A stretch of DNA of 64,000 nucleotides. Source: a virus (Duplodnaviria; Caudoviricetes). How positions within the stretch are numbered: position 1 is the first letter of the stretch; every line of letters begins with the position of its first letter. This document shows, one piece after another, positions 34,341 through 58,869 of the stretch. A program made the translations under genes and the position numbers. Under the pieces are notes generated by a model. That model saw nothing but the letters and a program-made list of their open reading frames with translations. It ran no database searches and had not been told where the DNA came from. Location: the IMG/VR virus record IMGVR_UViG_2974764813_000001, positions 64,001-128,000 of that record, one strand, 5' to 3'.

Positions 34341-34873
34341 CCAACCCGATGGCTGGCAGCGACGGTATCCAGGACCTCTACGACTCCGAGCGCGCGGCGC
34401 TGCGCGACATCGAGCGGGTGCTGCGCCAGCGGCACTCGTTCAAGGGCGTGATGACCATCGACCAGGAGGACGCGATCAAGCGGACCTTCGAGCAGGAGGC
34501 CCGCGAACGTTGCGCCGAGATCGGCCTGGTCGTCGACATCCAGTGGCACTGGGAGAAGCACGGCTGCCCCACCTGCAGTGCGCGGCAGGGCCGCCCGATC
34601 ACCTTCGACGGCACCCTCAAGTGCCCCGCCTGCGGCCAGGAGGGCCAGCGTGTGGGCGGCAGCCCCGACGTCTCCGACGATCCCGCCGACAACAACCTGT
34701 ACTGGAACCCGCGGCTGATCGTCACCGACCGGATCAACAAGCTCAAGATCGGCGAGTACGACCACGACCGTCAGCGCCATGAAATCCGCTCCGGTCTCCT
34801 GGACGGCAACGTCGGAACCATCCGCGAAGACGGTAGCTGGCGCGAGGATCCGAAGCGCAAAGACATCTACTGA
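34337..34873 (+). CDS. Hypothetical protein with Zn-ribbon
   Basis: CPTC...CPAC. Confidence 0.65.
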   Translation: MTNPMAGSDGIQDLYDSERAALRDIERVLRQRHSFKGVMTIDQEDAIKRTFEQEARERCAEIGLVVDIQWHWEKHGCPTCSARQGRPITFDGTLKCPACGQEGQRVGGSPDVSDDPADNNLYWNPRLIVTDRINKLKIGEYDHDRQRHEIRSGLLDGNVGTIREDGSWREDPKRKDIY

Positions 34874-34919
34874 CGCCCCCGTAATAGGTGAGAGACCCAC
34901 ATCACACGAAGGGGCGTCA
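34871..34919 (+). promoter_or_regulatory. Putative late promoter core (TAATAGGTGA) inside an RBS-occluding inverted repeat
   Basis: TGACGCCCC...GGGGCGTCA arms; ATG at 34922. Confidence 0.55.
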
Positions 34920-34921
34920 CC

Positions 34922-35071
34922 ATGGCTGATTTCGACGACTACGACGAGGACCCGACCGGCGAGGTGCCGACCCTGAGCCCCGAGGAGATCGCCCAGCTGC
35001 GCACCCGGCCGCGGCTGCTGATGCCCGCGGACTCCTCGCTGGTCACCGAGCACCGGCTCGGCCTGCAGTGA
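34922..35071 (+). CDS. Small acidic hypothetical protein
   Basis: RBS AAGGGG; tiles the gap. Confidence 0.5.
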   Translation: MADFDDYDEDPTGEVPTLSPEEIAQLRTRPRLLMPADSSLVTEHRLGLQ

Positions 35072-35199
35072 ACTGGAGCTGGGAGGTCCCACCGGCACTG
35101 ATCTGGTGGGGCCTCACCGTGGCAGCCGTGGTGGTCCTCGTCGCCATCGGCCTGGAGCTCGCCGAACTGATCGACCGCTGGCGAGGAGCCCGGCGGTGA
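35068..35199 (+). CDS. Small membrane protein
   Basis: GTGA overlaps; one TM helix. Confidence 0.5.
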   Translation: MNWSWEVPPALIWWGLTVAAVVVLVAIGLELAELIDRWRGARR

Positions 35200-35438
35200 C
35201 CTACCGCAACGATTGGATGATCTGGATGATCCTGGCAACACAGGGGATTCGCCTGGCGCACCGAGTGGCCTACGCCCTCGGTGCGCTGGTGGGCGGCGCC
35301 CTCAACGCGGTCTGCCCGCTCTACAACCCGATGCCGGTCGAGCCCATCGGCGACGAGGCCCTGCTGCTGGAGGCCGAGGAGGACCTCGACCACCTCGAGC
35401 CCACCGTCGGCGACGAGGACCGACGGGAGGCCCAGTGA
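35196..35438 (+). CDS. Hypothetical protein
   Basis: GTGA overlaps. Confidence 0.5.
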   Translation: MTYRNDWMIWMILATQGIRLAHRVAYALGALVGGALNAVCPLYNPMPVEPIGDEALLLEAEEDLDHLEPTVGDEDRREAQ

Positions 35439-35845
35439 CCGGGCAGCTCTACCGCGTGCTGATCACCGGCAGCCGCGAGTGGCATGACGAGGGCACGCTC
35501 TACGGCGCTCTGCAGACCCAGTGGACCATCGCCCAGGGCGCCGGGAAGTCGCTGATGGTCATCCACGGTGCCGCCCGCGGCGCGGACACCCTGGCCAGCG
35601 AGTGGGCCGCCAGCGTGGGTTTGCCCGGCATCTTCCAGATGGCCTACCCCGCCGAGTGGGAGCGCTACGGCCAGCGCGCCGGATTCGAGCGCAACCAGAA
35701 GATGGTCGACGACGGCGCCGACGTGTGCCTGGCGTTCGTCATCAAGTCGCCCGGCAAGAGCAAGGGCACCCGCGACTGCATGCGCCGCGCCAAGAAGGCA
35801 GGCATCCCGATCATCGAGCACACCCAGGGGGCGATCCGTGGCTGA
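35435..35845 (+). CDS. SLOG-family (DUF2493/YspA-like) nucleotide-binding protein
   Basis: VLITGSREW, IHGAARGAD, AEWERYGQRAGFERNQKM, SKGT. Confidence 0.85.
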   Translation: MTGQLYRVLITGSREWHDEGTLYGALQTQWTIAQGAGKSLMVIHGAARGADTLASEWAASVGLPGIFQMAYPAEWERYGQRAGFERNQKMVDDGADVCLAFVIKSPGKSKGTRDCMRRAKKAGIPIIEHTQGAIRG

Positions 35846-36437
35846 GTGCATCCCGCGGCGGCTCATCCGTACCGTGCCCGAGCAGCTCGACGACGAAGCC
35901 GAGCGGCTGTGGACCATCGCCACCGAACTGCACCCCGACTGGGAGCACGTCACGCTGCGCGACCCCATCGACCGCAGCCTGTTCCCGATCACCAGCCCGC
36001 ACTGGGACGCCTGCGAGACCGGCGCCCAGCTCGCCGACCTGGTCCGCGCCGAGGAGCTCTACTGGCGGGGCGGGGTCTACATCGACTCCGACGTCGAGTG
36101 CTACCGGAGCTTCGACCCGCTACTGGGCGTGCAAGGCTTCGCCGCCTGGGAGGACAGCGACCACATCCCCAACGCCGTCATGGGATTCACGCCCTGGCAC
36201 CCTGCGATCCGCGCCGTCGTCGACCTGGCCGTGGCCCGCCAGGGCGAGGGCACCTGGGCCGCCGGGGTCGGGGTCACCACCGAGGTGTTCGCCGGGCGCG
36301 ACGACATGCTGCTGCTGCCACCGGCCAGTTTCTACCCGTACCACTACACGATGAAGACGGTGGCGCAGCCGGAGATGATTCAGCGTCAGAACCCCTGGGC
36401 GTTTTGCGCCCATCACTGGAAGCACAGTTGGGCATGA
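35838..36437 (+). CDS. Glycosyltransferase, DxD sugar-binding (GT32-like)
   Basis: IPRRL, LHPDWE, ADLVR..ELY..GGVYIDSDVE, FCAHHWKHSW. Confidence 0.85.
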   Translation: MAECIPRRLIRTVPEQLDDEAERLWTIATELHPDWEHVTLRDPIDRSLFPITSPHWDACETGAQLADLVRAEELYWRGGVYIDSDVECYRSFDPLLGVQGFAAWEDSDHIPNAVMGFTPWHPAIRAVVDLAVARQGEGTWAAGVGVTTEVFAGRDDMLLLPPASFYPYHYTMKTVAQPEMIQRQNPWAFCAHHWKHSWA

Positions 36438-37129
36438 GGACCGTCATCTGCACGCCCTACCGCAGTGTCGACGCGCGCCGGGATCGCCTGTGGGAGTTCA
36501 CCCGTGGCTGGATCGCCGACCACTACCCCTACGAGGTGTTCGTCGGCGACCACGACGGCCCGTTCAGCCGGGCACGGGCCCGCAACCTCGCCGCGGCGGC
36601 CGCGGGGGACTGGGACATCGCGATCTTCCATGACGCCGACACCCTGGCCCACCCCGAGGCCATCGAAGAGGCCATCGACATGGCCGCGGCCACCAATCGC
36701 ATGGTGGTGGCAGGGGATTCGTTCATGTACGTCAACGAGTTCTCCACCAACCGCATCCTCGACAGCGGCGTACCGATGTTCGCCCGCCCGGCCAGCTTCG
36801 ACGAGCACGGGATCTACTCGCTGCCATGCTCGGGAGTGTTCGCGGTGAGCCGCAAGCTCTTCGACGCCGTCGGCGGCTACGTCGAGAACTTGCACGGCTG
36901 GGGCTATGAGGACCTGATCTTCCTCACCAGCTGCGGCATCTTCGGCGAGGGCAATGCGTGGGTGCCCCACCACATCCTGCTGCACCTGTGGCACGAGCCC
37001 TCGCCGCGCACCGCCGACACCGCACGCAACAAGGCGCTGTGGGAGCAGCTCGCCAACATCAGAAACCGCGAAGACACCGCGGCGGCCGTGGAATTCCTGA
37101 CCGCCCTTGGACATGAGGTAGGCCGATGA
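36434..37129 (+). CDS. Glycosyltransferase (GT2/GT7 galactosyltransferase-like)
   Basis: FSRARARN, FHDAD, VGGYVENLHGWGYED, HLWH. Confidence 0.85.
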   Translation: MRTVICTPYRSVDARRDRLWEFTRGWIADHYPYEVFVGDHDGPFSRARARNLAAAAAGDWDIAIFHDADTLAHPEAIEEAIDMAAATNRMVVAGDSFMYVNEFSTNRILDSGVPMFARPASFDEHGIYSLPCSGVFAVSRKLFDAVGGYVENLHGWGYEDLIFLTSCGIFGEGNAWVPHHILLHLWHEPSPRTADTARNKALWEQLANIRNREDTAAAVEFLTALGHEVGR

Positions 37130-37848
37130 AGGTCCCCGTGCTCGTTCCGTACCGCCCCGACGGCGGCCACCGTGACCGGCTGTGGAAATGGCTGCAGGAC
37201 GTCTACTGGCTTCCCTACCCGCTGTGCACCGAGTACACCGTCGTCGAAGGCACCAGCTACCCGCCCGAGGAGCCGTTCAACCGCAGCGCGGCCATCAACC
37301 GCGCCGCCAGGCTGGCCGACCTCGACGCCGACGAGGGCACCCTGTGGGATGTTGCTGTCATCGCCGACGCCGACACCTGGGTGCCCCGGCGGCAGCTCGA
37401 CGAGGCTGTGACCCTCGCCCGGCGCACCGGGCGCCTGGTCTCGGCGCTGACCAGCGTCATCGAGCTCAACGAAGCCTGCACCGAGACCCTGCTCAAGTGG
37501 GGCGAGGATGCCCCGCTGCTTGACCTGGGCATCGAGCGGGTGCGCACCGACGACTTTGCCACCCAGTCCTCCATGCTGGTGGTGCCCCGCACTCTGTGGG
37601 AGCGCATCGGCGGCTTTGACGAAGGCTTCGTCGGCTGGGGAGCCGAGGACAATGCCTTCTGGAAGGCCGCGGAGATCCTCGGCGGCACGCCGCTGCGCAT
37701 CGAGGGCGCGGCTCTGCACCTGTGGCATGCGGCCACCGATCCCATCGCGCGGCTGCAGGACCCGCAGTGGCGGGCCAACTGGGCGCGCTGGCAGCGCTAC
37801 AACGACGCCGTCTGCGAGTGCACGTTGCGCCGGGCCCAACGATCCTGA
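37126..37848 (+). CDS. Glycosyltransferase (GT2/GT7 galactosyltransferase-like)
   Basis: FNRSAAIN, IADAD, IGGFDEGFVGWGAED, HLWH. Confidence 0.87.
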   Translation: MKVPVLVPYRPDGGHRDRLWKWLQDVYWLPYPLCTEYTVVEGTSYPPEEPFNRSAAINRAARLADLDADEGTLWDVAVIADADTWVPRRQLDEAVTLARRTGRLVSALTSVIELNEACTETLLKWGEDAPLLDLGIERVRTDDFATQSSMLVVPRTLWERIGGFDEGFVGWGAEDNAFWKAAEILGGTPLRIEGAALHLWHAATDPIARLQDPQWRANWARWQRYNDAVCECTLRRAQRS

Positions 37849-37862
37849 CCCCAAGGAGCACC

Positions 37863-38378
37863 ATGCCGACCTCACATCCCGAAGGCCGCGACTGGGTCGC
37901 CGAGCACGTGCGCTGGACCACCGCGCCGGTCATCGTCGACATCGGCTGCGGCATGGGCACCTACAGCGACGTGGCCCGTGGCTGGCGCCCGGAGGCGCAC
38001 TGGATCGGGGTGGAGATCCACCTGCCCTATGTCAAGCGCTACGAGCTGATGCGCAAGTACGACACCGTGGTGATCGGGGACCTGCGCAGCTACGTGTTCC
38101 CGCGGGAGCCGTTCGTGTTGCTGGCCGGGGACGTCATCGAGCACGTGCACCGCGAGGAGGCGCTGGCGTTCCTGGCGCGTGCCCGCGAGGCCGCCGAGGA
38201 GATCATGATCTCGGTGCCCATCGTGCACTATCCGCAGGGTCCGCTGGAGGGCAACGAGCACGAGACCCACCTCGATCAGTGGACCTTCGAGGAGATGGCC
38301 GAGCAGCTGCCCGGCTGCGAAACGTGGTGCGGTGACGTCGTCGGCCGCTACTGGTGGAAGCGCTCAGAATCGGTATAG
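37863..38378 (+). CDS. Class I SAM-dependent methyltransferase
   Basis: IVDIGCGMG, IGVEI, GDVIEH. Confidence 0.87.
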   Translation: MPTSHPEGRDWVAEHVRWTTAPVIVDIGCGMGTYSDVARGWRPEAHWIGVEIHLPYVKRYELMRKYDTVVIGDLRSYVFPREPFVLLAGDVIEHVHREEALAFLARAREAAEEIMISVPIVHYPQGPLEGNEHETHLDQWTFEEMAEQLPGCETWCGDVVGRYWWKRSESV

Positions 38379-38450
38379 AAACTAGCTAGAAACACGCGGC
38401 TGTGGAGCGTGACTTGCCTCTAGATGTGCTGTAGGATTCCTACAGAATCA
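38366..38450. promoter_or_regulatory. Promoter/operator region with phased units and the palindrome CTGTAGGA-T-TCCTACAG
   Basis: Minus CTAGCTAGTTT|CTATACCGATT; plus CTGTAGGATTC|CTACAGAATCA. Confidence 0.6.
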
Positions 38451-38470
38451 CAGGCAGGAGACCATCTTTC

Positions 38471-38701
38471 ATGACCGTCCGCATCAACAACGTCAGCCTC
38501 GAAGTCGACGGGGCCGTGGTCCGCAAGTTCGACGGCGCCACGACCTCGCTCACCGTCACCGGCGAGCAGGCACACTCCCTGTACCGGGACCTGTCGGCTG
38601 TCATCGGGCTGCTCGACGACGGCACCGGGCCCGATGAGCAGGTCGCCGCCGGGCCCATGTCCATCGCTCCGTCGGCCGAGGCCCTCGGGGTCCTGGAGTG
38701 A
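38471..38701 (+). CDS. Hypothetical protein
   Basis: RBS AGGAG. Confidence 0.6.
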   Translation: MTVRINNVSLEVDGAVVRKFDGATTSLTVTGEQAHSLYRDLSAVIGLLDDGTGPDEQVAAGPMSIAPSAEALGVLE

Positions 38702-39132
38702 GCGCGCCCAACCTGCTCGACGCCACCGAGACCTTCATGTGGAAGGCCGGACAGCTCGACGCCGCACCGCTGAGCGATCACTGGGGCGATGCCCGCTTCG
38801 CCGACCAGCACGACCAGCGCCGCGCGATGCGGGTCCGGCTGATCCGCGAGGAGATCGAGGAGTACCTCGACGCCGAAGACGAAGACGACCTCGTCGAGAT
38901 CGTCGACGGCCTGCTCGACATCATCGTCGTGGCCTGGGGCACGCTGCTCGACTACGTCGGGCCCCGCGCGGCCCTGCGCGCCGCCAGCGAGGTGGTCCGC
39001 ACCAACCTCGCCAAGGTGCTCGGCCCTGGCCTGCCGCTCAAGCGCGCCGACGGCAAGGTGCTCAAGCCCGAGGGGTGGACCCCGCCCGACATCGCCAAGG
39101 CGATTGGCTGGGTGACCCGTGCTCACTCCTGA
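38698..39132 (+). CDS. MazG-like (DR2231-type) nucleotide pyrophosphohydrolase
   Basis: LIREEIEE...EIVDGLLD, TNLAK, DGKVLKPEGWTPPDI. Confidence 0.85.
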   Translation: MSAPNLLDATETFMWKAGQLDAAPLSDHWGDARFADQHDQRRAMRVRLIREEIEEYLDAEDEDDLVEIVDGLLDIIVVAWGTLLDYVGPRAALRAASEVVRTNLAKVLGPGLPLKRADGKVLKPEGWTPPDIAKAIGWVTRAHS

Positions 39133-39508
39133 CCAGATCCGCGAGGCCACCCCCGCCGAGCTCTACGACGACATGGCGCTGCGCTTCGGCCGCGACCTGC
39201 TCACCAGCATCTACAACGCGGGCAACCCGCGCACCCTGATCGGATGCACCCTCACCCACCTGCCCACCGGCAAGGAGGTCGTCGAGCGCGGCCACCCCAA
39301 CGCCTTCAAGGCACGTCGCGCCGCCTACGCCCGGCTCGTCGAGCTGATCATGCCCGACGAGACCAACTACGTGCGCCCCGAGACCGACGACGAGGCCCGC
39401 ATCGTCGCCGACCTGGTGTTCGGCCCGCGCCCGGACCTGGTCACCGTCGCCGACGTGCGCGCCGAGGCCAACCTGCTCATCCAACTGCACCGGAGGAAGA
39501 CCGCATGA
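39119..39508 (+). CDS. Protein with a degenerate release-factor (RF-1 domain 3)-like segment
   Basis: CTLTHLPTGKEV...FKARRAAYARL; no GGQ. Confidence 0.5.
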   Translation: MLTPDQIREATPAELYDDMALRFGRDLLTSIYNAGNPRTLIGCTLTHLPTGKEVVERGHPNAFKARRAAYARLVELIMPDETNYVRPETDDEARIVADLVFGPRPDLVTVADVRAEANLLIQLHRRKTA

Positions 39509-41397: not shown

Positions 41398-41477
41398 TCC
41401 TTGCACTTGGCCCTCGGCAAGTTCAAACGCGCACTGGCGCAGAACGCACCAAAAACTCACCAACCCTTTCCTTATAA

Positions 41478-44006: not shown

Positions 44007-44017
44007 GAGGAGACACC

Positions 44018-46012: not shown

Positions 46013-46161
46013 ACGTCATCGTGGTGGTGCCGATGCACCGACGGTCGCTGGCCCCCGACAAGGTCGCCGAGGCGATGGAGTTCATGCTCAATGCCCACGT
46101 GCTCACCGTGACGGTCGTCGACCACGACGGCGAGGTGCTCACCTACGAGGCGGGCGCATGA
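46009..46161 (+). CDS. Small hypothetical protein
   Basis: ATGA overlaps. Confidence 0.55.
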   Translation: MNVIVVVPMHRRSLAPDKVAEAMEFMLNAHVLTVTVVDHDGEVLTYEAGA

Positions 46162-46505
46162 ACCGCAGCCACACCGAGCGCCGCCGCCTGGTGGTGGCGA
46201 TGACCCGCGACGGGCACTCGATCCGCGAGATCGCCGAGGTCCTCGACCTCACCCCGCGCAGCGTGCAGCGCCACCGCCACGACGCTGGGATCACCCGCCC
46301 GCCCAACAACGACCCGCTCACCGCCGAGGAGTGCGCCACCGCGCGCGCCCTGCTCGAAGACGGCGCCAGCTACCGCGAGGTCGCGCGCACCCTGGGCCGC
46401 TCGGCGGTCACCCTGCGCCGCCGCCTGCCCGGCTACGGCTGGGACCGCGAGCAGTTGCTGGACTACCTGACCACCACCAAGCCCCTGGAAGGAGCCCTGG
46501 CATGA
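46158..46505 (+). CDS. Tandem HTH DNA-binding protein
   Basis: GHSIREIAEVLDLTPRSVQR; GASYREVARTLG...PGYGW. Confidence 0.85.
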   Translation: MNRSHTERRRLVVAMTRDGHSIREIAEVLDLTPRSVQRHRHDAGITRPPNNDPLTAEECATARALLEDGASYREVARTLGRSAVTLRRRLPGYGWDREQLLDYLTTTKPLEGALA

Positions 46506-47995: not shown

Positions 47996-48060
47996 CCTGT
48001 CGCCGCAGGTGTCCCCGACCGGAATAGGGGAAGGGGCAGCACCGGACGAGGGACTGAGGC
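47996..48060 (+). promoter_or_regulatory. Putative late promoter CCTGTC-N21-AATAGGGGA with imperfect RBS-occluding hairpin
   Basis: Same spacing as 58817-58852; GTCCC/GGGAC and CCGG/CCGG arms. Confidence 0.55.
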
Positions 48061-50916
48061 ATGGCGCGCAAACTGCTGGGCACCGCCGCGAGCAGCGACC
48101 CGGACGCGGTCACCAAGAAGGTGCTCGACGCCGCGGTCGCCGACGTGGAGGCCGGAGCGGGGCTGTCCGAGGACGACATCGTCGCGTTCCTCGACGACGA
48201 GAACTCCGAGCTGCGCCAGGCCCTCGACGCGCTCTACGAGGACGGCGGCTCCGGCGGGGGCGGCACCTGGGGCACCATCGTCGGGGATCTGGCCGACCAG
48301 ACCGACCTGGCCGCCGCGCTGGACGACAAGGCCGACGCCGATCAGCTGCCCACCGACGCCACCGTGGGGCATCTGGTCACCGTCGGACCCGACGACACCC
48401 TCGAAGACGCCGGGGTCGGCCCCGAGGACTTCGCCACCGCCGCTCAGGGCGCCAAGGCCGACACCGCGGTGCAGGCGCTGGCCGACCTGGGCATCACCAC
48501 CACCGCCGCCGAGCTCAACCACACCGCCGGGGTCACCGGGCCGATCCAGGACCAGCTCGACGCCAAGGTCCCGGCCGCGCGCACCGTCAACGGCCAGGCG
48601 CTGTCGGCCGATGTCACCCTGACCCTCGACGACGTGCCCGAGGGCACCACCAACAAGGCGTTCACCGCCACCGACCAGGCCGCGCTGGCCAGCCTGCAGA
48701 CCGGCCTGGCCGCCAAGGTCGACACCGTCGGCACCGCCAGCCGCCTCTACGCCACCGACGGCTCCGGCGCGCAGACCACCGTGCCGTACGCGAACTCCGG
48801 CACCACCTCGGGCACCGTGGTGATGCGCGGCACCGGCGGCACCATCACCGCGGGCACCCCGACGGCCACCGGCCACGCCGCCACCAAGGGCTACGTCGAC
48901 ACCGCCCTGGAGGGCAAGGCCGCCGCCACCCACACCCACACCGTGGCTGCGCTGACCGACCTGAGCGTCAGCGCCACCGAGCTCAACCAGCTCGCCGGGG
49001 TCAGCAGCCCGGTGCAGACCCAGCTCAACGGCAAGCAGGCCACCCTCGGTTTCACCCCGGAGAACGTCGCCAACCGCAACGAGCCCAACGGCTACTGCGG
49101 CCTGGACGAGGCCGGGCGCATCTCCCCGGCGCAGCTGCCCAGCTACGTCGACGACGTGCTGGAGGTCGACACCTTCGACGACCTGGACAATCCCGGCGAG
49201 CCCGGCAAGATCTACATCACCGTCGACACCAATGAGGTGTGGCGCTGGTCGGGCTCGGGCTACATGCAGATCGTCGGCTCGCCGGGCACCACCGATGAGA
49301 TCGCCGAGGGCAGCACCAACCGCTACTTCACCGCCGAGCGCGCGGTGGCCGCCCTGGGCGCGCTGACTGCCAGCGACAACCAGATCCTGCAGCGCAAGTC
49401 CGGCGCGCTGACCGCGCGCACCCCCGCCGAGTTCAAGACCGACCTCGCCCTGGTGGCCGCCGACATCGGCTCGGGCACCTTCGACGCCGCGCGCATCCCC
49501 GGCGGGACCACCGGCAAGGCGGTGCTGGCCAGTGCCACCCCCGAGGCCGCCCTCACCGCGCTGCAGCCCGATCTGGACAACAAGATCTACGGCATCATCG
49601 ACTTCTACGCCACCGAGGAAACCGCGACCTTCGCCAACAAGATCCTCTCCGGCGCCACCAACACCTTCACCGACATCAGCGCCGACGCGCTGGTCGACGG
49701 CGCCACCAACAAGGTGTTCACCACCGCGGAGAAGACCAAGCTGGGCACGGTCGCGACCAACGCGGATGTCACCAACGCCGCCAGCGTGGACGCCGCGGGT
49801 GCGGTGATGAACACCGACACCTCCACCGCCGCCATGGCCTTCGTGCTCGACGAGGACGACCTGGCCAGCGACTCGGCGACCAAGGTGCCCACCCAGCAGT
49901 CGGTGAAGGCCTACGTCGACGCCCACGCCAGCGCCGGGGGCGGGATGCGGGTGCTGTACTACAGCGACGACGACGGCTGGCCGGACCGCCCCGACGACGA
50001 CACCCCGACGTTGTTCCTCGGCGGCACCGAGGACACCCCGCCCACCGACGTCGATGTGCACGCCGGGGACGTGTGGATCGCCGACGGCGAGGTGGCCTCG
50101 GCGCTGGCCGACCTCACCGACGTCGTCGTCGGCGACCCGCAGCCTCTGGATCTGCTGGCCTATTCCGGGGAGGCGGGCTGGGCCAATACGCCGCGCGAGG
50201 AGCTCGGGCTGGCGATGCAGACCGTCGTCACGGTGGCCACCGAGGACACCGAGGTCGAGGTCGACCGTCACGTGCTGGCACTGACCTTCGACTCCGAGGG
50301 CTTCACCCTCACCCTGCCCGCGCAGCCGCGCGTCGGCGCGCGGGTGAAGATCACCAACTTCCTCTCAGCCGGGCCGGTCCACGTCGCCGCCGGTGACGGG
50401 GATCTGATCGCCACCGACCTGTTCGACCCGGTGGTCCTGGCCACCAACGTGGTGCCCAAGCAGCACGACAGCATCACCCTGTACTACATCCAGGCGCCCG
50501 CCGAGGGCGACGACGGCCCGGAGCCGGGCCAGTGGTTCGTCGAAGACGTCATTCTCGCCCCGTCGACCGACCCGAAGGTCTCGGTGATCGAGACCCTGGT
50601 CGGGGGCACCACCGCCCAGTGGAACACCTCCGGCGGCCTGGAGATCGCCCGCCTGCACAATCCCACCCAGTCGTCGTGCACGATCAACCTCACCACCGAC
50701 CCCGGCGCCACCGTGCCGCACGGGCAGCGCGTCACCCTGGAGTTCTACCGGGCCGCCGGGGCGCTGACCCTGTCCTGGCCCACCCAGTTCCTCGCCTCCG
50801 GCGTGGCGCAGCTGCCGACCACGGTGCCCGCGGGCAAGACCGTGCGCGTCGGGGTGATGTATGACGCCTACGTCGAGAAGTGGGTCGCCATGGCCGCAGA
50901 CCCCGTGGGGTACTGA
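48061..50916 (+). CDS. Fibre-like virion protein
   Basis: 951 aa, Ala/Thr-rich; ELN..GV...QxQL repeats, RTVNGQALSADVTL, HAATKGYVD, QLPSYVDDV, SDSATKVPTQQSVKAYVD. Confidence 0.8.
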   Translation: MARKLLGTAASSDPDAVTKKVLDAAVADVEAGAGLSEDDIVAFLDDENSELRQALDALYEDGGSGGGGTWGTIVGDLADQTDLAAALDDKADADQLPTDATVGHLVTVGPDDTLEDAGVGPEDFATAAQGAKADTAVQALADLGITTTAAELNHTAGVTGPIQDQLDAKVPAARTVNGQALSADVTLTLDDVPEGTTNKAFTATDQAALASLQTGLAAKVDTVGTASRLYATDGSGAQTTVPYANSGTTSGTVVMRGTGGTITAGTPTATGHAATKGYVDTALEGKAAATHTHTVAALTDLSVSATELNQLAGVSSPVQTQLNGKQATLGFTPENVANRNEPNGYCGLDEAGRISPAQLPSYVDDVLEVDTFDDLDNPGEPGKIYITVDTNEVWRWSGSGYMQIVGSPGTTDEIAEGSTNRYFTAERAVAALGALTASDNQILQRKSGALTARTPAEFKTDLALVAADIGSGTFDAARIPGGTTGKAVLASATPEAALTALQPDLDNKIYGIIDFYATEETATFANKILSGATNTFTDISADALVDGATNKVFTTAEKTKLGTVATNADVTNAASVDAAGAVMNTDTSTAAMAFVLDEDDLASDSATKVPTQQSVKAYVDAHASAGGGMRVLYYSDDDGWPDRPDDDTPTLFLGGTEDTPPTDVDVHAGDVWIADGEVASALADLTDVVVGDPQPLDLLAYSGEAGWANTPREELGLAMQTVVTVATEDTEVEVDRHVLALTFDSEGFTLTLPAQPRVGARVKITNFLSAGPVHVAAGDGDLIATDLFDPVVLATNVVPKQHDSITLYYIQAPAEGDDGPEPGQWFVEDVILAPSTDPKVSVIETLVGGTTAQWNTSGGLEIARLHNPTQSSCTINLTTDPGATVPHGQRVTLEFYRAAGALTLSWPTQFLASGVAQLPTTVPAGKTVRVGVMYDAYVEKWVAMAADPVGY

Positions 50917-51800: not shown

Positions 51801-51818
51801 GGACAGGAGCACACAACC

Positions 51819-52232: not shown

Positions 52233-52242
52233 GGGGCGCGCT

Positions 52243-54018
52243 GTGGCGATCACACGGGTGGGTGCCACCTCGGCGACCGGCACCACGGCCTCCCTGCCCG
52301 CCGGGGTGCAGGCTGGGGATCTCATCGTCGTGGTGGCCTGGCGCAACAACAGCACCTCTGCACCGGCGGTACCGGCGGGCTACGCCGCCTACGGCCCGAT
52401 TGCGGGGCCCACGTGCTCGATGGTCGCGGGGATCAAGCTCGCCTCCGGCCCGTCGGACACCGTGGGCACCTGGTCTCCGGCCACCGGCGTGGTCGTGCAC
52501 GTCTACCGCGGGGGCATCGGCATCCTCGGCATCTCCAATACCGGCACCAGTGCGTTGATGGGCTTCATCAGCTCCTCGGTGCTCTCGCCGAACAGCTCGT
52601 GGGTGATGCGGGTGGGCGCGCACCGCACCGCCACCAACCTGGTCAACGGCGACCTCAGCGACCGCTACGAGTTCGTCACCGGTGTGACCAATCAGCTGGT
52701 CTCCTACGACACCGCCGGGCCGATCACCTCCGGCAGCACTGGGGCCAACAACCAGGCTGTCAATGCCAGCAGCGGCTGGATCACCTTGACCATCGAGATC
52801 GTGGAGGCCGGGCAGGACATCTCCACCGGCCTGGTCGACACCTTCGACGAGGCCTTCACCCTCGAGGACATCACGACGCTGGCGAAGTGGCGCAAGGCCG
52901 TGGGCACCGGCGAGAGCTACGCCAGGATGCACCAGGGCTATCTCGACACCTACGCCGACGGCACCCTCAACGGCACCACGGTGGTCTGGAGCCAGTCGCA
53001 CTACAGCGTGCAGGGCACGCGGTGCTACGTGCGGCCCCGCTCGATGAACGGCGGCCAGCCGCTGTGGGGGCTGCAGGAGAGCGAGGCCGACCTCTCCCGC
53101 GGCGCGTACTGGGGCTGGTCGGGTCTGGGTATGTTCGCCGGGTACGGCCAGTGGACGCAGGTTCGGTTCGGCTTCAACAACCTCGACGTGCGGTTCTCCA
53201 GCGGCATCGCCCTGGGCATCGCACCGCCGCTGCTGTCGATCCGCGAGTCCGGCGGCACCGTGTACTGGGAGTACTCCAGCGACAGCGGGGCGACCTGGAC
53301 CGAGGTGGGCTCGGCGCCCACGGCCACGGTGTTCCCCGAGTGGTCGGGGCGCCGGGTCAAGGCCGTGATTGGGGTCGGCCGTCAGACCAGCGGCGATGCG
53401 GGTCTGAGCCGGTGGGACAACTTCAACACCACTCAGACGTTCACCCGCGGCCTGAAGGCCAAAGACTTCTCCGACCCCTTCAACGAGCCGACGCTCAACC
53501 CCGACCGCTGGCTGCAGTACCCGAACTCGGAGCCGGTGGCGATCATCGACGGCGAGCTGCAGATCACCGGGGGCAGCGGGGTCTACTCCACCGCGCTGGA
53601 CATGGACGAGGGAGAACTGCGCTTCCAGGTCACCAAGGCGAGCTGGGGCGGGGAGCTGTTCAGCGAGGTCTTCGTGAGCCTGGCGGGAGCACTGTTGTCC
53701 CCGCCGCTGATCGTGTTCGACATGAACTCGATGACCGCACGGGTGCAGTTCGACGTGACCGAGGACTACGTCGGGCCGTTCGACTACGTCGAGGGGGACT
53801 GGTTCCGCTTCAGAGAGGTGTCCAACACGCTCTACATCGAGCAGTCCAGCGACGGGCACGAGTGGACCACGCTGGGCAGCACCACCCTGGCCTACGTCAT
53901 CGCCAACCTGTCCCGCACTCGGCTGTGGATCATCCCGTTCACTGACGGGCCGGTGGACTTCCGGCTGGACAACTTCAACGCCTCCGGCAGTGCGGGACAG
54001 TTCTTTTTCCTGTTCTGA
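52243..54018 (+). CDS. Minor tail/receptor-binding protein with two lectin-like beta-sandwich repeats
   Basis: LPAGVQAGDLIVV; duplicated (I/F)RE....Y.E.SSD...WT..GS. Confidence 0.72.
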   Translation: MAITRVGATSATGTTASLPAGVQAGDLIVVVAWRNNSTSAPAVPAGYAAYGPIAGPTCSMVAGIKLASGPSDTVGTWSPATGVVVHVYRGGIGILGISNTGTSALMGFISSSVLSPNSSWVMRVGAHRTATNLVNGDLSDRYEFVTGVTNQLVSYDTAGPITSGSTGANNQAVNASSGWITLTIEIVEAGQDISTGLVDTFDEAFTLEDITTLAKWRKAVGTGESYARMHQGYLDTYADGTLNGTTVVWSQSHYSVQGTRCYVRPRSMNGGQPLWGLQESEADLSRGAYWGWSGLGMFAGYGQWTQVRFGFNNLDVRFSSGIALGIAPPLLSIRESGGTVYWEYSSDSGATWTEVGSAPTATVFPEWSGRRVKAVIGVGRQTSGDAGLSRWDNFNTTQTFTRGLKAKDFSDPFNEPTLNPDRWLQYPNSEPVAIIDGELQITGGSGVYSTALDMDEGELRFQVTKASWGGELFSEVFVSLAGALLSPPLIVFDMNSMTARVQFDVTEDYVGPFDYVEGDWFRFREVSNTLYIEQSSDGHEWTTLGSTTLAYVIANLSRTRLWIIPFTDGPVDFRLDNFNASGSAGQFFFLF

Positions 54019-54076
54019 CCTGCTAATCTATAGCAATACTAGACAAACGCTATACCAATGGGGTACGCTAGTGTCA
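54016..54076 (+). promoter_or_regulatory. Promoter TAGACA-N18-TACGCT with phased array; leaderless start
   Basis: TGACCTGC-TAAT|CTATAGCAATA|CTAGACAAACG|CTATACCAATG ... GTC-ATG. Confidence 0.72.
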
Positions 54077-54318
54077 TGACGAACACAGCAGCCACCCCCG
54101 CCCCCGCCCTCAAGTGGACCGTCGTCCGGCCCGGCACCCACGCCAGCACCGACGGCGCCTACGTCATCGAGCGCGCCACCACCGTGACCAACGGCTGGGT
54201 CGGCGTGGAATGGCGGGTGTTCTTCCGCGGCGAGCAGGTGCGCACCGGCAGCTACCTGTCCGACGCCAAGCGCGAGGCCTCGGCGCACGCCTCCCAGTTC
54301 GCCGCCGGACTTGTCTGA
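54076..54318 (+). CDS. Hypothetical protein (leaderless)
   Basis: ATG 7 nt after -10. Confidence 0.65.
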   Translation: MTNTAATPAPALKWTVVRPGTHASTDGAYVIERATTVTNGWVGVEWRVFFRGEQVRTGSYLSDAKREASAHASQFAAGLV

Positions 54319-54360
54319 ACTGCGTTTCTAGACAAAGTCTAGACAAACGCTACTATTTCC
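54316..54360 (+). promoter_or_regulatory. Phased array/promoter (TAGACA-N16-TACTAT)
   Basis: TGAACTGC-GTTT|CTAGACAAAGT|CTAGACAAACG|CTACTATTTCC. Confidence 0.68.
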
Positions 54361-54374
54361 CCAGGAGGCACCAC

Positions 54375-54887
54375 ATGAGCGAGAAGTGCGAGAAGGCCCG
54401 CAAGGCCAACTACCTGACCGGCGCGGTGCGCGTCACCACCTGCACGTACCAGGACGGCGGCGTCGGCGTGGAGGCCAGCATGTACTTCGACGAGGGCTGC
54501 GAGGCCGAGCGCGACGCCTGGATCGCCCAGTTCCCCAAGAGCTACCGCATCCGCAGCAACACCCTCAACGGCCAGGAGCAGAACTACTACGCCGACCGCC
54601 CGTTCCCGACCGGCTTCGTCGCGGTGGACAAGGTGACCGGCGAGGAGCTCTCGGCCGAGGAGAAGAGCGCCAACCCCCGCCGCTACCAGTGGCGGCTGCC
54701 GATGGCCCAGTTCCGGGTCGTGCTGGCCGCCACCGGCGTCACCGGCGACAAGAACGAGACCGGCTACAAGCGCCTGGTGGGCTTCCTGCGCAAGCTCGAC
54801 ACCCTGGGCATCCAGTGGGAGCACGAGATGCAGCGCGTCGCCACCGAGCAGCCCACCATCGAACAGATCCTGGCGCGCTACGCATGA
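54375..54887 (+). CDS. Hypothetical protein
   Basis: RBS AGGAGG. Confidence 0.72.
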   Translation: MSEKCEKARKANYLTGAVRVTTCTYQDGGVGVEASMYFDEGCEAERDAWIAQFPKSYRIRSNTLNGQEQNYYADRPFPTGFVAVDKVTGEELSAEEKSANPRRYQWRLPMAQFRVVLAATGVTGDKNETGYKRLVGFLRKLDTLGIQWEHEMQRVATEQPTIEQILARYA

Positions 54888-55135
54888 GCATCGGAGAGGA
54901 GGTGGCGATGCTCGACATCGTCACCGGGGAGCCCACCGACGCCGGGTACGACGCCGCCGACGCCATCGAGCTGTGGCTGGAGAACCACCCCGGCAAGCAC
55001 ACCCCGAGCCGCATCGCCCGCGGGGTGCACATCGACACCAGCCAGGCCCGAGCGATCCTGTGCTGGCTCGACGAGCACGTCTACGTCGCCGCCACCGGCA
55101 ACGGCTGCTGGCGCCGCTACGGAGCGCGTCGCTGA
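54884..55135 (+). CDS. Small winged-HTH-like protein
   Basis: TPSRIARGVHIDTSQARAILCWL. Confidence 0.6.
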   Translation: MSIGEEVAMLDIVTGEPTDAGYDAADAIELWLENHPGKHTPSRIARGVHIDTSQARAILCWLDEHVYVAATGNGCWRRYGARR

Positions 55136-55193
55136 CCTGCGTATCTAGGTTAAAACTAGGCATAAACTATACGGATCTGATAGAATCGGGTCA
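55133..55193 (+). promoter_or_regulatory. Promoter TAGGCA-N18-TAGAAT with phased array
   Basis: TGACCTGC-GTAT|CTAGGTTAAAA|CTAGGCATAAA|CTATACGGATC. Confidence 0.72.
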
Positions 55194-55231
55194 TCGAGTT
55201 GAGCTACTGAAATTCCCCGCAGGAGGCCCTC

Positions 55232-55453
55232 ATGAGCAACTTCCAGTCGCGTCTGTACCGCACCGCCACCGCCCGCGCCATCGCCCAGGCCGGAGACGGC
55301 TGGGACTTGATCGGCAAGCGCTTCCAGCGGGCCCTGATCGCCGAGGAGATCCTGATCCTGGTCAACTCCCAGGACGAGGACATCCCCGACTCCACGGTGC
55401 GCGCGCTGGCCGACGACCTGATGCGCACCCTCAACGCCGAATACCGCGACTGA
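55232..55453 (+). CDS. Hypothetical protein
   Basis: RBS AGGAGG. Confidence 0.68.
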   Translation: MSNFQSRLYRTATARAIAQAGDGWDLIGKRFQRALIAEEILILVNSQDEDIPDSTVRALADDLMRTLNAEYRD

Positions 55454-55467
55454 CCCCAGGAGGACCG

Positions 55468-55575
55468 ATGACCGCACGCGACCGCTACCAGAACAAGGCC
55501 TACACCGCGCCCCGCGACAAGGCCCGCGACGAGCACGAGGCCCAGGACCTCGCCGACCGCGACGAGGAGGACTGA
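55468..55575 (+). CDS. Small charged peptide
   Basis: RBS AGGAGG. Confidence 0.5.
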   Translation: MTARDRYQNKAYTAPRDKARDEHEAQDLADRDEED

Positions 55576-55577
55576 GC

Positions 55578-55832
55578 GTGGCCCGCCTCAACCGGCTCTA
55601 CCGCACCGCCACCGAGAACGGCTGGACGCTCAAGCCCCACAACCTCTTCGACTACTGGGGCGTGATCTACACCCGCGGCGCCGAGACGCTGTGCCTGCGC
55701 TCCACCAACGGCCGCCTGACCGCCGTGCAGCACACCCGCGGCGACGGCATCGTCTTCGCCCCCAAGCGCGACAAGTTCGACACCACCCTCGAGATCCTCA
55801 CCGCCACCCCCGCACCCCAGGAGGCCCGATGA
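55578..55832 (+). CDS. Hypothetical protein
   Basis: RBS GAGGAGG. Confidence 0.62.
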   Translation: MARLNRLYRTATENGWTLKPHNLFDYWGVIYTRGAETLCLRSTNGRLTAVQHTRGDGIVFAPKRDKFDTTLEILTATPAPQEAR

Positions 55833-56152
55833 CCACATCCCTGTCCGAGAAGGTCGCCAAGCTGCTTAACCAGGCCGAGCGCGCCGGAACCGAGGCCGAG
55901 GCCCGCGCCAACGCTCTCGCCAACCAGGTGGGCCTCACCCACATCTGGCACGGCGACTACAAGGCGCCGATCTACGTGCCCTCCCAGCACCGGCGTGTGC
56001 ACTTCGACCTCGGCGCCCCCGGCGAGCACTACACCGAGATCCAGGTCGGCTTCACCGCCGACGGCCGCCTGGAGATCCAGGGCGGCCATGAGCTCAGCGT
56101 CGACATGCAGTCGTCGAATACCTTCCAGGTCCGGTTCAAGGAGCAGCGATGA
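55829..56152 (+). CDS. Hypothetical protein with DUF2786-like N-terminus
   Basis: EKVAKLLNQAE...TEAEA. Confidence 0.55.
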   Translation: MTTSLSEKVAKLLNQAERAGTEAEARANALANQVGLTHIWHGDYKAPIYVPSQHRRVHFDLGAPGEHYTEIQVGFTADGRLEIQGGHELSVDMQSSNTFQVRFKEQR

Positions 56153-56544
56153 AACTCTGGGTAGACGACGAGCGCACCCCGCCCGAAGGTGACGACTGGG
56201 TCTGGGTGCTCACCGTCAGCGACGCCATCGACGTGCTGACCAACACCGAGGTCGCCCCCGAGGTGATGAGCCTGGACTACGTGCTCAAGCGCGGCGAGAC
56301 CGCCGACGACATCCTCTACTGGCTCAAAGACCAGCCCGCCGACCGCTGGCCCACCGAGATCCTCGCGCACTCGTCGAGCGCCGCGGCCCGCGAGCTCATC
56401 ATGCAGCTGGTCGAGGACTTCCGGCGTGCAGGCCTGGCTCAAAGACAAGCTCTGACCATGGGCGATCTGCACACCGAGTGCCCGGACTGCCACGAGCGCT
56501 GGGAGGATTGCCAGTGCGACGAGAACTTCGACGAGGAGGGCTGA
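56149..56544 (+). CDS. Cyclic-phosphate-processing receiver (cREC)-like protein
   Basis: KLWVDDERTPP..DWVW...AI..L...MSLD...HSS. Confidence 0.7.
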   Translation: MKLWVDDERTPPEGDDWVWVLTVSDAIDVLTNTEVAPEVMSLDYVLKRGETADDILYWLKDQPADRWPTEILAHSSSAAARELIMQLVEDFRRAGLAQRQALTMGDLHTECPDCHERWEDCQCDENFDEEG

Positions 56545-56545
56545 C

Positions 56546-57074
56546 GTGACCGAGTGCTGCGCGTCCGGCTCGTGCGAGGTCTGTCGTGGCCCCTCGGGCT
56601 ACAGCAGCGAGCGCCGCGAGCAGATTAGGCGTGACCTGGCCGATTACGACCCGCCCTGGGTCCGCGAGCATCGACGAGAGGGTTGGACATGACCGCACTG
56701 CTGGCTGTGCTCATCGCGCTGTCGCCGGACAACACGGCCCCGCCGACACCGGAGATCCCGCCGCCGCTGCCGACCTACATCGTCAACGGCGACGGCTCGC
56801 GGATGAACTGCACGCCCACCTACAGCTACTGCTGGCCGGGGCAGCCGTGAGTCACCGCGACGAGGTGGCCAGTCTGTGGCTGCGCGCTGCCGGAGAGCCC
56901 GACATCCACCAGGGCGTGGTGGAGCTGCGCGCGGCCGGAACCGACCGGGACTTCTCGCTCTTCGGCGACGACGAGGAGGAGCAGGTCATCGAGCTCACCA
57001 TCGACCGCGAGCGCGCCGAGTGGCTCCGCGACCAGCTCACCAAGTGGCTGGACGGCGCTGACCTCGACGACTAG
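56546..57074 (+). other. Three small coupled ORFs (56546-56692, 56689-56850, 56847-57074)
   Basis: ATGA/GTGA overlaps. Confidence 0.5.
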
Positions 57075-57108
57075 ACGTTTTCTATACCAATGCTGTATGA
57101 TTGAGTCA
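57059..57108 (+). promoter_or_regulatory. Promoter TAGACG-N18-TATGAT with phased array; leaderless start
   Basis: TGACCTCG-ACGA|CTAGACGTTTT|CTATACCAATG|CTGTATGATTG-AGTC-ATG. Confidence 0.72.
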
Positions 57109-57248
57109 TGATGCAAAACACCGACGTCTACACCATGGCCGAGATCATCGGCCGCCGCAGCAACCTGGACTGGGCCGCCGCGGTCGCCGCCGCCGAGGAC
57201 GCCATCGCCCACGGCTTCACCGTCGACGAACTGAGGCCCGTGCGGTGA
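57108..57248 (+). CDS. Small hypothetical protein (leaderless)
   Basis: ATG 7 nt after -10; GTGA overlap with the next gene. Confidence 0.55.
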   Translation: MMQNTDVYTMAEIIGRRSNLDWAAAVAAAEDAIAHGFTVDELRPVR

Positions 57249-57463
57249 GCGCCGCCGAGACCCGCGCAGTCAACCGGCTGCGCAAGGCGCAGGCCGCCTA
57301 CGACGAGGTCATGGCCAAGTACGCCACCGCTGCCAGCATCACCGGCAGCCCCATCCACCTCGAGAAGCTCGCTGTCTTCAACGAGCTTCAGGCGGCCCTC
57401 TGGCCGTTCACCACCGGCAAGTACGAACTGCCCGAAGACCTCAAGGGGTCCGGGTTGACCTGA
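57245..57463 (+). CDS. Hypothetical protein
   Basis: GTGA overlap. Confidence 0.58.
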   Translation: MSAAETRAVNRLRKAQAAYDEVMAKYATAASITGSPIHLEKLAVFNELQAALWPFTTGKYELPEDLKGSGLT

Positions 57464-57513
57464 CTGCCGCCCACCTACAGGGCCGCCCCGCGCGGACCGG
57501 AAACGGAGCACCC

Positions 57514-58515
57514 ATGACCATCTTCGACCTGGCTCCCTCGATCCAGCGCAACATCCTGCTCGGTATCGCCTACGGCGATGCCTGGGGCTACCCCAACGAA
57601 TTCCACTCCTACGCTGAGCTCACCAAGAAGACTCCGCACGGGCCCGACGTGCCCAAGAAGCTCTTCGTCTCCGACGACACCCAGATGGCGCTCGCGCTCG
57701 CCCAGGCGCTGACCTACCTGCGCGAAGACACCGAGCCCGAGGTGACGCAGTTCCTCATCATCGACGAGTTCATCAAGTGGTCGGAGGACAAGGACAACAA
57801 CCGCGCACCCGGCCACACCTGCATGAGCTCCTGCTACAACCTCAAGGAGGGCATGAGCTGGGAGCGCGCCCACGGTGTCGCCTCCAAGGGCTGCGGCGCG
57901 GTGATGCGCGTGGCCCCCGCGGCATTCCTGCCCGAGGGCCTGTGGCAGCCGGTCGCGATGTGGCAGGCCGCCGCCACCCACGGTCACCCCGCGGCCATCG
58001 CCGCGTCGCTGATCCTGGCCGCGGTCGTCCGACGCAAGGCGACGGGCGGGGCGTTCCCCGAGGGCGTGCTGGCCGGTGCCATCGAGCTCACCTGCAACAT
58101 CGCCCCACGCGGGGTCGGCTCGGACTGGCTCATCGACCACCGTCTCGCTGGAAGCTCGCGGGCCGCGGCGGCGATGGTGAGCTTCGGCATGACGCTGGTG
58201 CGCGACAAACTGATCGAGGCCGCCGCCAAGCTCACCGCGTTCCGCAGCGACCCCTGGCACGACGATCCGTCCAAGGACCTGCCCGGCTGGTACTCCGACG
58301 ACGCGCTGGCCTGCGCGCTGCTGTGCGTGGACATGGTCGACGACCCGGTGGAGGCGCTGCGCCGTGCGGCCACCACCGAGGGCGACTCCGACTCGATTGC
58401 CGCCATCGCCGGTGCCGTGCTCGGCGCCGACCCCGCCATCACCTGGCCCGCCGAGTGGTACGCACGGCTGGAGCCGCGCTACCGCACGTGGATCGACACG
58501 TTCGGAAAGGAGTGA
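57514..58515 (+). CDS. ADP-ribosylglycohydrolase (DraG/ARH family)
   Basis: LLGIAYGDAWG..EF, SDDTQM, GCGAVMRVAP, THGHP, GDSDSIAAIAGA. Confidence 0.92.
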   Translation: MTIFDLAPSIQRNILLGIAYGDAWGYPNEFHSYAELTKKTPHGPDVPKKLFVSDDTQMALALAQALTYLREDTEPEVTQFLIIDEFIKWSEDKDNNRAPGHTCMSSCYNLKEGMSWERAHGVASKGCGAVMRVAPAAFLPEGLWQPVAMWQAAATHGHPAAIAASLILAAVVRRKATGGAFPEGVLAGAIELTCNIAPRGVGSDWLIDHRLAGSSRAAAAMVSFGMTLVRDKLIEAAAKLTAFRSDPWHDDPSKDLPGWYSDDALACALLCVDMVDDPVEALRRAATTEGDSDSIAAIAGAVLGADPAITWPAEWYARLEPRYRTWIDTFGKE

Positions 58516-58517
58516 CC

Positions 58518-58676
58518 ATGCGTACAGGGATGGGGCAGATCTTCTACTGCTCGCGCCACGGCGACTACAGTGACAACCGCGTGGTGAGCATCGGAAGCCG
58601 CATCGGCGAGGACGGCGAAGCCATCGCCGACCAGTGCGCCGACTGCATCGACGAGTGCGAGGCCGCGACGTGGTGA
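58518..58676 (+). CDS. Small Zn-binding protein
   Basis: CSRHG...CADC; RBS AAGGAG. Confidence 0.55.
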   Translation: MRTGMGQIFYCSRHGDYSDNRVVSIGSRIGEDGEAIADQCADCIDECEAATW

Positions 58677-58816
58677 TCCCCGACGACTTGGACCTCAACG
58701 ATCCCAACGCGGTCTACGACTGGCTGCGCGCTGAGTCCGATCCCGGCATGCACTACGAGTCCGAGACCGAGCGGTTCTACGAGCGGCTGGGCCGGGGAGG
58801 GCCTCCCGCGCCGTGA
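58673..58816 (+). CDS. Small hypothetical protein
   Basis: GTGA overlap. Confidence 0.45.
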   Translation: MIPDDLDLNDPNAVYDWLRAESDPGMHYESETERFYERLGRGGPPAP

Positions 58817-58869
58817 CCTGTCTCCCTCTGTCCTGCCGCACCTAATAGGTGAGGGCAGGCAGAGGGAGA
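58817..58869 (+). promoter_or_regulatory. Putative late promoter CCTGTC-N21-AATAGGTGA embedded in a long RBS-sequestering hairpin
   Basis: TCTCCCTCTG(T)CCTGCC...CACCT-AAT-AGGTG...GGCAGGCAGAGGGAGA; GTG at 58876. Confidence 0.65.

Follow-up and report, generated by a model that had tools for sequence, protein, structure and literature searches.

The late genes of an uncultured virus, represented by a 136,361-bp viral contig in IMG/VR (67% G+C), are preceded by a two-part sequence element: a CCTGT box and, 22 nucleotides (nt) further on, a core of the type AATAGG, which lies within a predicted hairpin whose 3′ arm usually carries the Shine-Dalgarno (SD) sequence of the next gene. The element was followed up from a 64,000-nt stretch, bases 64001-128000 of the contig, called the window here; positions are those of the window unless given as genome positions. 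It has a defined motif with a strict bias in strand and position, it keeps company with late genes, and it is conserved at orthologous sites in relatives. Judged from its sequence context, it is a signal specific to virion and lysis genes, and it appears to be common to the Bxz1-like actinobacterial myoviruses, that is, the Cluster C mycobacteriophages, the Gordonia phages Skog and Pupper, and this uncultured 136-kb phage. We put at about even the chance that it is a phage-specific late promoter of the Bxz1/Alice group, starting transcription in or just after the core and using a masking logic like that of T4.

The exact 9-mer AATAGGKGA occurs three times in the window, always on the forward strand, compared to 0.11 expected by chance, and none of 100 shuffled sequences reached three copies. 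A first-pass annotation had described these three loci as sharing the core, and its coordinates and sequences for the cores are all correct; the three are part of a larger family, about 12 copies in the genome, with the looser consensus CCTGT-N22-AA[T/G/A]AG[G/A]T[G/A][A/G], followed by purines and with CC at −5/−4. The whole genome has five copies of the exact 9-mer, all forward and each just 5′ of a ribosome site; the two beyond the window precede a 1088-residue protein and, across the contig junction, the endolysin. Variants known from relatives add genome sites 42582, 44505, 62364, and 132643, and a weight matrix together with the pattern CTGT-N22-AANA adds 16817, 30802, and, more weakly, 23787. 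At matrix scores of at least 12, forward and reverse sites number 11 and 0 in this genome (2 of the 11 had not been used in building the matrix), 5 and 0 in mycobacteriophage Alice, and 3 and 0 in Skog.

The box was first noticed as CCTGTC exactly 21 nt upstream of two of the cores, and this spacing is far from what chance would give: CCTGTC-N21-AATAGG has two matches in the window (47996 and 58817), with 0.00 expected. The 5′ C of the box falls 27 nt before the core, and among 16 sites columns −27 to −23 read C13 C10 T10 G11 T13. When the gap in CTGT-Nx-AANA is varied, the maximum is at x = 22, with 9 matches in this genome versus 0 to 5 at ten other spacings and 14 matches in Alice versus 0 to 9. 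The same bipartite pattern has six forward matches in Tonenili, none in reverse and none in the control. The core is always 17 to 52 nt from a start codon.

In this genome, the element stands before the baseplate operon (genome 62364), the holin (genome 132643), and the endolysin (genome 136328), as well as before a virion protein like gp232 of Alice (58844) and a minor-tail-like protein (48023). At genome 30802, it precedes a LysM/transglycosylase protein, the first gene of the operon for the protease and the major capsid protein, and at genome 23787, it is found before the gene preceding portal. By the GenBank annotation of Alice, the genes directly behind it are those for gp95 (head fibre), gp120 (tail sheath), gp232 (virion structural protein), gp236 (endolysin), gp159 (a minor tail protein whose gene lies within the tRNA cluster), gp89 (with a LysM domain) and gp90, both ahead of the major head protein gene, and two hypothetical proteins, gp69 and gp98. 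The replication/early region of about 45 kb holds a single element, at 34883, in front of a small open reading frame (ORF) that leads into glycosyltransferases; given only one site in such a region, we take the element to be specific to late genes. Scanning the genome for the motif before late genes, as had been proposed, found it enriched there, on the forward strand only, and at the orthologous late-gene sites of distant relatives. Virion-type genes do follow the two cores first described as standing before fibre cassettes, at 48023 and 58844, the latter beginning with GTG at 58876. The core at 34883 is followed by a 49-residue ORF and then the glycosyltransferase block.

Conservation is clearest at the gp232-like gene, where an orthologous element is found in seven relatives (Alice, Tonenili, Skog, Pupper, and three from IMG/VR), making eight phages with this one. 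Its core there takes the forms AATAGGTGA, AATAGATGA, AATAGATAG, AATAGGGGA, AATCAGTAG, and AATAAGGGA, and CCTGT is present at the kept spacing in 7 of the 8. The hairpin arms at this site are unrelated in sequence between lineages and yet retain their pairing: TCTCCCTCTGTCCTGCC/GGCAGGCAGAGGGAGA in this phage, CTGATCAGCG/CGTGATCAG in Skog, and GCAGCA/TGCTGC plus CACTCC/GGAGTG in Alice. The endolysin and gp89-like sites are likewise orthologous between this phage and Alice. A 147.5-kb relative, G001, has about 19 forward CCTG-AATAGGTGA-GGAGG cores with hairpins. IMG/VR rates G001 a provirus, and at its gp232-like site the 5′ arm looks deleted relative to that of this phage. Rhodococcus phage E3 has one convincing bipartite site, yet the pattern as a whole is not above control in that genome.

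Pairing of the SD, the position of its partner, and profiles aligned on the core were computed for 25 sites from three genomes; all folding reported here is prediction. For leaders of 75 nt, the probability that the SD pairs to an upstream partner has a median of 0.82, and 223 intergenic leaders taken from these genomes as controls give 0.49 (Mann-Whitney p = 2e-4). The sequence it pairs with is on the 5′ side of the core (median 0.81), not in the stretch from core to SD (0.00), even with the SD 20 to 26 nt downstream. In the aligned profile, 5′-arm probability is 0.6 to 0.9 at −15 to −2, in a spacer whose sequence is not conserved, AAnA forms the apex (unpaired 0.82 to 0.93), and 3′-arm probability climbs from +4, in the arm that carries the SD. 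The expected number of base pairs around the apex is 19.7 for 45 sites in four genomes; AA[ATG]A sites drawn at random, 1000 in number, give 9.8 (p = 4e-12). The excess is significant separately in each of the four genomes. The core thus lies between an anti-SD arm and an SD arm well beyond chance, as had been claimed for the first three sites. In short sites, the stem is plain anti-SD:SD pairing (CCTCCTC/GAGGAGG). The SD is predicted to be sequestered in the longer read-through transcript, as it is in the T4 arrangement. Leaders modeled from core +4 have a freer SD (median 0.54, versus 0.17 in the long leader).

The three window sites, all on the forward strand, present this geometry in different ways. 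At Site A (34871-34921), TGACGCCCC (34871-34879), which includes the TGA stop of the upstream gene, pairs over 9 bp with GGGGCGTCA (34911-34919), covering a GAAGGGG ribosome site ahead of the ATG at 34922. The core, AATAGGTGA at 34883-34891, is predicted to lie within a 31-nt loop, and the SD has a 0.67 probability of pairing upstream of the core. Site B (47996-48060) has its CCTGT box at 47996-48000 and its core, AATAGGGGA, at 48023-48031 within an imperfect hairpin (48002-48060) just before the ATG at 48061; its SD is unpaired at 0.47 in the long leader and 0.77 in the short one. At Site C (58817-58875), the box (58817-58821) runs into the 5′ arm TCTCCCTCTGTCCTGCC (58821-58837), which pairs with GGCAGGCAGAGGGAGA (58853-58869) over 16 bp with one bulged T, and the core, AATAGGTGA at 58844-58852, is at the apex, where it forms part of an extra inner CACCT/AGGTG stem of 5 bp. 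The 3′ arm contains GGGAGA, and the SD, ahead of the GTG at 58876, is unpaired at 0.01 in the long leader and 0.89 in the short one. The inverted-repeat arms reported in the first-pass annotation, with a 3′ arm over the SD in each case, match their description at all three sites, imperfect at 48002-48060 as stated there. None of the three sites has the CTA arrays that are present at other promoters, again as first reported.

The genes behind these sites are also on the forward strand. Site A leads into the 49-residue ORF (34922-35071), further small ORFs, and glycosyltransferase genes at 35846-37129 and 37126-37848. Behind Site B is a 951-residue protein (48061-50916) that matches PHROG minor tail and tail protein families, with a Pfam PTR match below the cut-off. 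The 1151-residue protein behind Site C (58876-62331) is the orthologue of Alice gp232; its full-length match to phrog_2824 (virion structural protein) scores 1053 bits, and it is 42 to 44% identical to orthologues in Skog, Pupper, and Cluster C mycobacteriophages such as Alice, Tonenili, and LinStu.

Most likely, transcription would start within the core or at its 3′ edge, roughly at core +4 to +9. Such a start would put CCTGT at about −31 to −35, the normal position of a −35 element. Late mRNA would then begin inside the loop, lacking the anti-SD arm, and would be translated; transcripts reading in from SigA-type early promoters upstream would carry both arms, fold, and stay untranslated. Early-type AT-rich SigA-like promoters, several with apparent leaderless starts, lie ahead of small genes immediately 5′ of several sites, and no terminator-like sites were found between them and the late genes. 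For Site C, the candidate source of early read-through is a SigA-type promoter-like site, TAGACG-18-TATGAT, at 57072-57101 on the forward strand; the stretch from there to 58876 showed no terminator-like site. An ADP-ribosylglycohydrolase gene (57514-58515; Pfam E = 6e-47) lies 3′ of this promoter-like site and directly 5′ of the virion structural gene.

The spacing between core and ribosome site constrains where a start could lie. In 7 of the 25 sites, the SD begins 5 to 8 nt after the first core base, so that GGAGG abuts the core, and the start codon is only 17 to 22 nt from that base. The core therefore cannot be a classical −10 element, since a start 6 to 8 nt downstream would delete the ribosome site, and a promoter start must lie in the core or at its edge. 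The late promoter first proposed for these loci is consistent with the late-gene specificity, the hairpins, and the upstream SigA-type promoters with no terminator behind them, and it fails in these seven sites if the core is treated as an ordinary −10. Promoter activity, the position of the start, its timing, and any part played by a sigma-4-like protein are what we infer from these patterns.

A number of observations weigh against a promoter. There is no consensus SigA or sigma-70-type promoter at the elements, whether of the −35/−10 or the extended −10 form. However the core is aligned to a −10 (TANNNT), the final T is missing, and a gap of 22 nt from box to core is too wide for a −35/−10 pair, for which the SigA norm is 16 to 18 nt. 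A start so unusually near the most conserved bases would be more typical of single-subunit or noncanonical polymerases. Searches for sigma region 2 (Sigma70_r2) gave no match. A split sigma factor was considered and rejected on this ground and on the finding that the gene just 5′ of the sigma-4-like gene is not sigma-like. G001, a close relative, retains the core and hairpins without the CCTGT box at −27. A hairpin centered precisely on AAnA is equally apt for recognition at the RNA level, and neither the G-U content (8%) nor the comparison of sense and antisense folding energies (p = 0.087) separates RNA from DNA structure. The site lists were curated partly by eye. Finally, the literature searched holds no start, timing, or protein-binding data for these phages; for Cluster C phages in particular, it offers neither mapped transcripts nor an account of the motif, and no earlier description of the element came to light.

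A tentative alternative, to which we give clearly less weight than to a promoter, is that the late genes are transcribed from upstream promoters and that the apex AAUAGGUGA is a site at which a late phage or host factor opens the anti-SD:SD hairpin or cuts its loop, so that the SD would become accessible only late. The constant nearness of the core to a start codon (17 to 52 nt), its position exactly at an unpaired apex with the SD in the 3′ arm, and G001, which has core and hairpin but no upstream DNA box, would all fit such a regulon, and the seven sites where the SD abuts the core would no longer pose a problem. It is hard to explain on RNA, however, why CCTGT should keep a fixed 22-nt spacing whatever the geometry of the hairpin. 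Moreover, the core hairpin leaves the SD of the gene unmasked at four sites (genome 23787 and 132643, Alice 67257, and Skog 98917), and the RNA context of the core differs from site to site, with an inner stem at 58844 and a 31-nt loop at 34883. Together, the unmasked sites and the variable context favor recognition on DNA. The Alice gp95 site, without a clear anti-SD arm, lies 3′ of a strong terminator-like hairpin, where a new promoter would be needed; this combination also fits the read-through logic. Rfam 15 gave no match at gathering score in the 64-kb window, no antisense copy of the core was found, and no candidate RNA-binding protein was identified. A model for RNA-level control exists in phage Mu, where Com activates translation of mom by recognizing a stem-loop beside the structure that hides the ribosome site. 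Mu has a single such site, and we found neither a Com-like protein nor a consistent RNA presentation of the core here.

A bolder proposal, somewhat less probable still, is that late transcription starts within a conserved AATA|GG initiator at the tip of an extrudable hairpin, read in a non-sigma-70 manner by a remodeled host polymerase with the sigma-4-like protein or by an unrecognized phage polymerase, or else that the apex loop defines a genome-wide RNA regulon with one unmasking late factor. Conservation next to the inferred start resembles TATA|GGGAGA, when compared with promoters of single-subunit, T7-like polymerases. A search of this genome, Alice, and Skog for such a polymerase (PF00940) gave no hit, a weak negative, as the control set gave no match either. 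If either version were true, it would be a new mode of late-gene control in a phage group with more than 200 sequenced members.

It is unlikely that the hairpins are mainly transcription insulators, such as the terminators lacking a U tract that have been proposed for actinobacteria, or mRNA-stabilizing stem-loops, with the SD overlap a by-product of gaps of 50 to 70 nt and the core a promoter or other signal that lies between the arms by coincidence. The hairpins do sit between a stop and the next start in short gaps, and the 46- to 60-kb part of the window has no canonical U-tract terminators, so another form of termination might operate there. This would not explain why the SD bypasses nearer sequence to pair specifically with the arm on the 5′ side of the core, why its sequestration exceeds that in other GC-rich leaders of the same genomes, or why the stem in short sites is plain anti-SD:SD; several stems are also just 5 to 7 bp, weak for termination. 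That an AT-rich word simply recurred by chance in GC-rich intergenic DNA, with hairpins of the kind predicted for any GC-rich leader, is refuted: by itself, AATAGG shows no enrichment in the window (4 copies, versus 3.46 expected) and GC-rich leaders fold readily, as the control pairing of 0.49 attests, but neither accounts for the failure of all 100 shuffles, the strict strand bias, the base pairing around the apex (p = 4e-12), or sites kept across genera.

Other roles for the core were considered and set aside. As an SD-like or standby site, AGGUGA would fit the 16S tail, yet Alice and Skog have AGAUGA or AGAUAG at orthologous sites. An antisense small RNA partner would call for a reverse-strand copy of the core; none exists, and the reverse weight-matrix maximum is about 10, compared to forward scores of at least 18. 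An alternative structure in which CCUGU pairs with AUAGG shows no covariation in AAGAGG variants and is impossible in G001, in which CCTG abuts the core. Coupling through a ribosome terminating on the upstream gene is not general, as the upstream stops vary too much, from about −21 to −51 relative to the core. The divergent upstream gene at genome 23787 was dropped as proof that a promoter is needed there, since the region is poorly resolved, and a supposed 1.3-kb gap before genome 62364 is in fact a gene overlooked by the gene caller.

Two sites may have further layers of control. At the Alice endolysin site (139989-140039), the ORF that uses the masked GAGGAGG is a 9-codon one (GTG...TGA) upstream of the endolysin. 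Its stop overlaps the annotated ATG of the endolysin (TGATG), which suggests coupling through a leader peptide. At the holin site (genome 132643-132693), GTGCCCC can pair either with GGGGCAC just 3′ of the core or with TGGGGCAC at the ribosome site. These alternatives might amount to a three-segment switch; by the computed energies, the short leader is still masked.

What might read a late promoter of this kind? The first-pass annotation suggested the sigma-4-like protein encoded at 30333-30962 on the forward strand (209 residues). Its predicted structure (predicted local distance difference test score, 86) does contain a fold like sigma region 4, with no region 2. Residues ~55 to 115 superpose on region 4, the −35-binding part, of the extracytoplasmic function (ECF) sigma factors SigC and SigD of Mycobacterium tuberculosis and sigma-E of Escherichia coli, with root mean square deviations of 1.7 to 2.7 Å over 56 to 61 aligned columns; the matches are local, and their Foldseek E-values are weak. 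Each of the five relatives tested has a homologue, and so do 217 phages in GenBank, every one a phage of Mycobacterium, Mycolicibacterium, Gordonia, or Rhodococcus; the protein is a signature gene of the group. The homologue in Alice is at 119892-120227. The protein is a candidate reader of the CCTGT box; its link to the motif is one of co-occurrence, and no region 2 partner was found. The gene directly before it (29649-30329, with its stop at 30329 and the next start at 30333) encodes a conserved 226-residue protein with a confident predicted fold of long helical hairpins and no clear match among solved structures. Elsewhere in the window, a 115-residue protein (46158-46505) has two helix-turn-helix motifs (HTH_23/Sigma70_r4_2 and HTH_38), making it another candidate DNA-binding regulator, which might act, for instance, on the CTA arrays. 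Those arrays mark a second promoter class (6111, 54016, 55133, and genome 13656), in which TGACCTGC stands ahead of three CTA(T/G)A words in 11-bp phase and of a SigA-like −35/−10. In several cases, the −10 is 6 nt before the ATG, implying leaderless mRNAs, and this class has a CCTG word in common with the late-type box.

Late promoters of other large lytic phages include TATAAATA in T4, the gp33/34-dependent promoters of SPO1, and promoters close to the start site in phiKZ and AR9. The element resembles these in having a short phage-specific consensus, in about 10 to 40 forward copies directly 5′ of late genes, that is unlike the host housekeeping type. It differs in a predicted start very close to the conserved bases and in its systematic coupling to an anti-SD hairpin.

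The closest parallel is with T4, and the precedent is as it had been cited: for genes e, soc, 49, and I-TevI, long early transcripts sequester the ribosome site, and late promoters just upstream give transcripts without the 5′ strand (PMC3014915). In both cases, in this phage by predicted folding, the SD or start pairs with an upstream strand in the long transcript, a late-gene signal lies within the structure right 5′ of the ribosome site, and the predicted outcome is that virion or lysis genes behind early promoters are translated from late transcripts only. The systems differ in other respects. The host group here is unrelated, being actinobacterial; the signal is CCTGT-N22-AATAGGTGA rather than TATAAATA and is at the hairpin apex rather than in the 5′ strand; no gp55/gp33-type factors were detected; and some 10 to 20 late genes per genome would be involved, compared to a few in T4, with start and timing predicted. 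The element would work like the T4 arrangement and is not homologous to the system of gp55/gp33, sliding clamp, and TATAAATA. We regard it as a variant on known logic, of the T4 type, with a different signal.

A second comparison is with the start-associated sequences (SAS) and extended SAS (ESAS) of Cluster K mycobacteriophages, short asymmetric sequences in 11 to 19 copies, in one orientation, just 5′ of start codons (Pope et al. 2011; PMC3203893). The 13-bp SAS, GGGATAGGAGCCC, lies 3 to 7 bp from the start, at the ribosome-site position, and before nonstructural genes only; its function is unknown, and according to its authors, the inverted repeats of ESAS do not support RNA pairing (PMC3203893). 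The ATAGG core of GGGATAGGAGCCC, the single orientation near starts, and the upstream inverted repeats of some SAS are shared features. In contrast, the core here is 17 to 52 nt from the start, is distinct from the SD, precedes virion and lysis genes, and lies between arms that pair despite variable sequence.

Few mycobacteriophage late promoters are known, and a 2022 review called for their study (PMC9262239). The element is a concrete and testable late-signal candidate for the whole Cluster C/Bxz1 group and its Gordonia and metagenomic relatives. It would account for virion genes that sit directly behind early-type promoters, tRNA clusters, and metabolic genes without being expressed early, and it would make the anti-SD logic of T4 a general architecture rather than a feature of a handful of genes. 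If confirmed, it could provide strong late-specific expression signals for mycobacterial genetics and a route to the factor that switches these phages to late transcription.

The wider genome fits this phage group. Protein matches assign the window to the Bxz1-like actinobacterial myoviruses, and megablast of the window against GenBank phages gave no match. Virion and tail genes occupy the first 1 to 6 kb, a replication block (helicases, primase, SSB, DNA polymerase, recombinase, and exonuclease) extends from about 8 to 34 kb, and past it come glycosyltransferases, small genes, and two large virion-type genes. Circular permutation of the contig is seen in its final intergenic region, which runs on into its first gene. 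That gene, beginning at contig base 1, encodes the endolysin (peptidase C39-like plus GH19), whose upstream element lies at the contig end (genome 136328-136361). The next gene encodes a large terminase, split by an intein (Hint plus LAGLIDADG); the two genes fall within genome region 1-4911. Two very large proteins with ParB-like segments, of 1088 and 2030 residues, are encoded among the virion genes, with a late element directly upstream or heading their operon; the first (L008:2600-5866) has a C-terminal Zeta-toxin/AAA_33 kinase domain, and the second runs from 62357 to the window end at 64000 and on to genome 132449.

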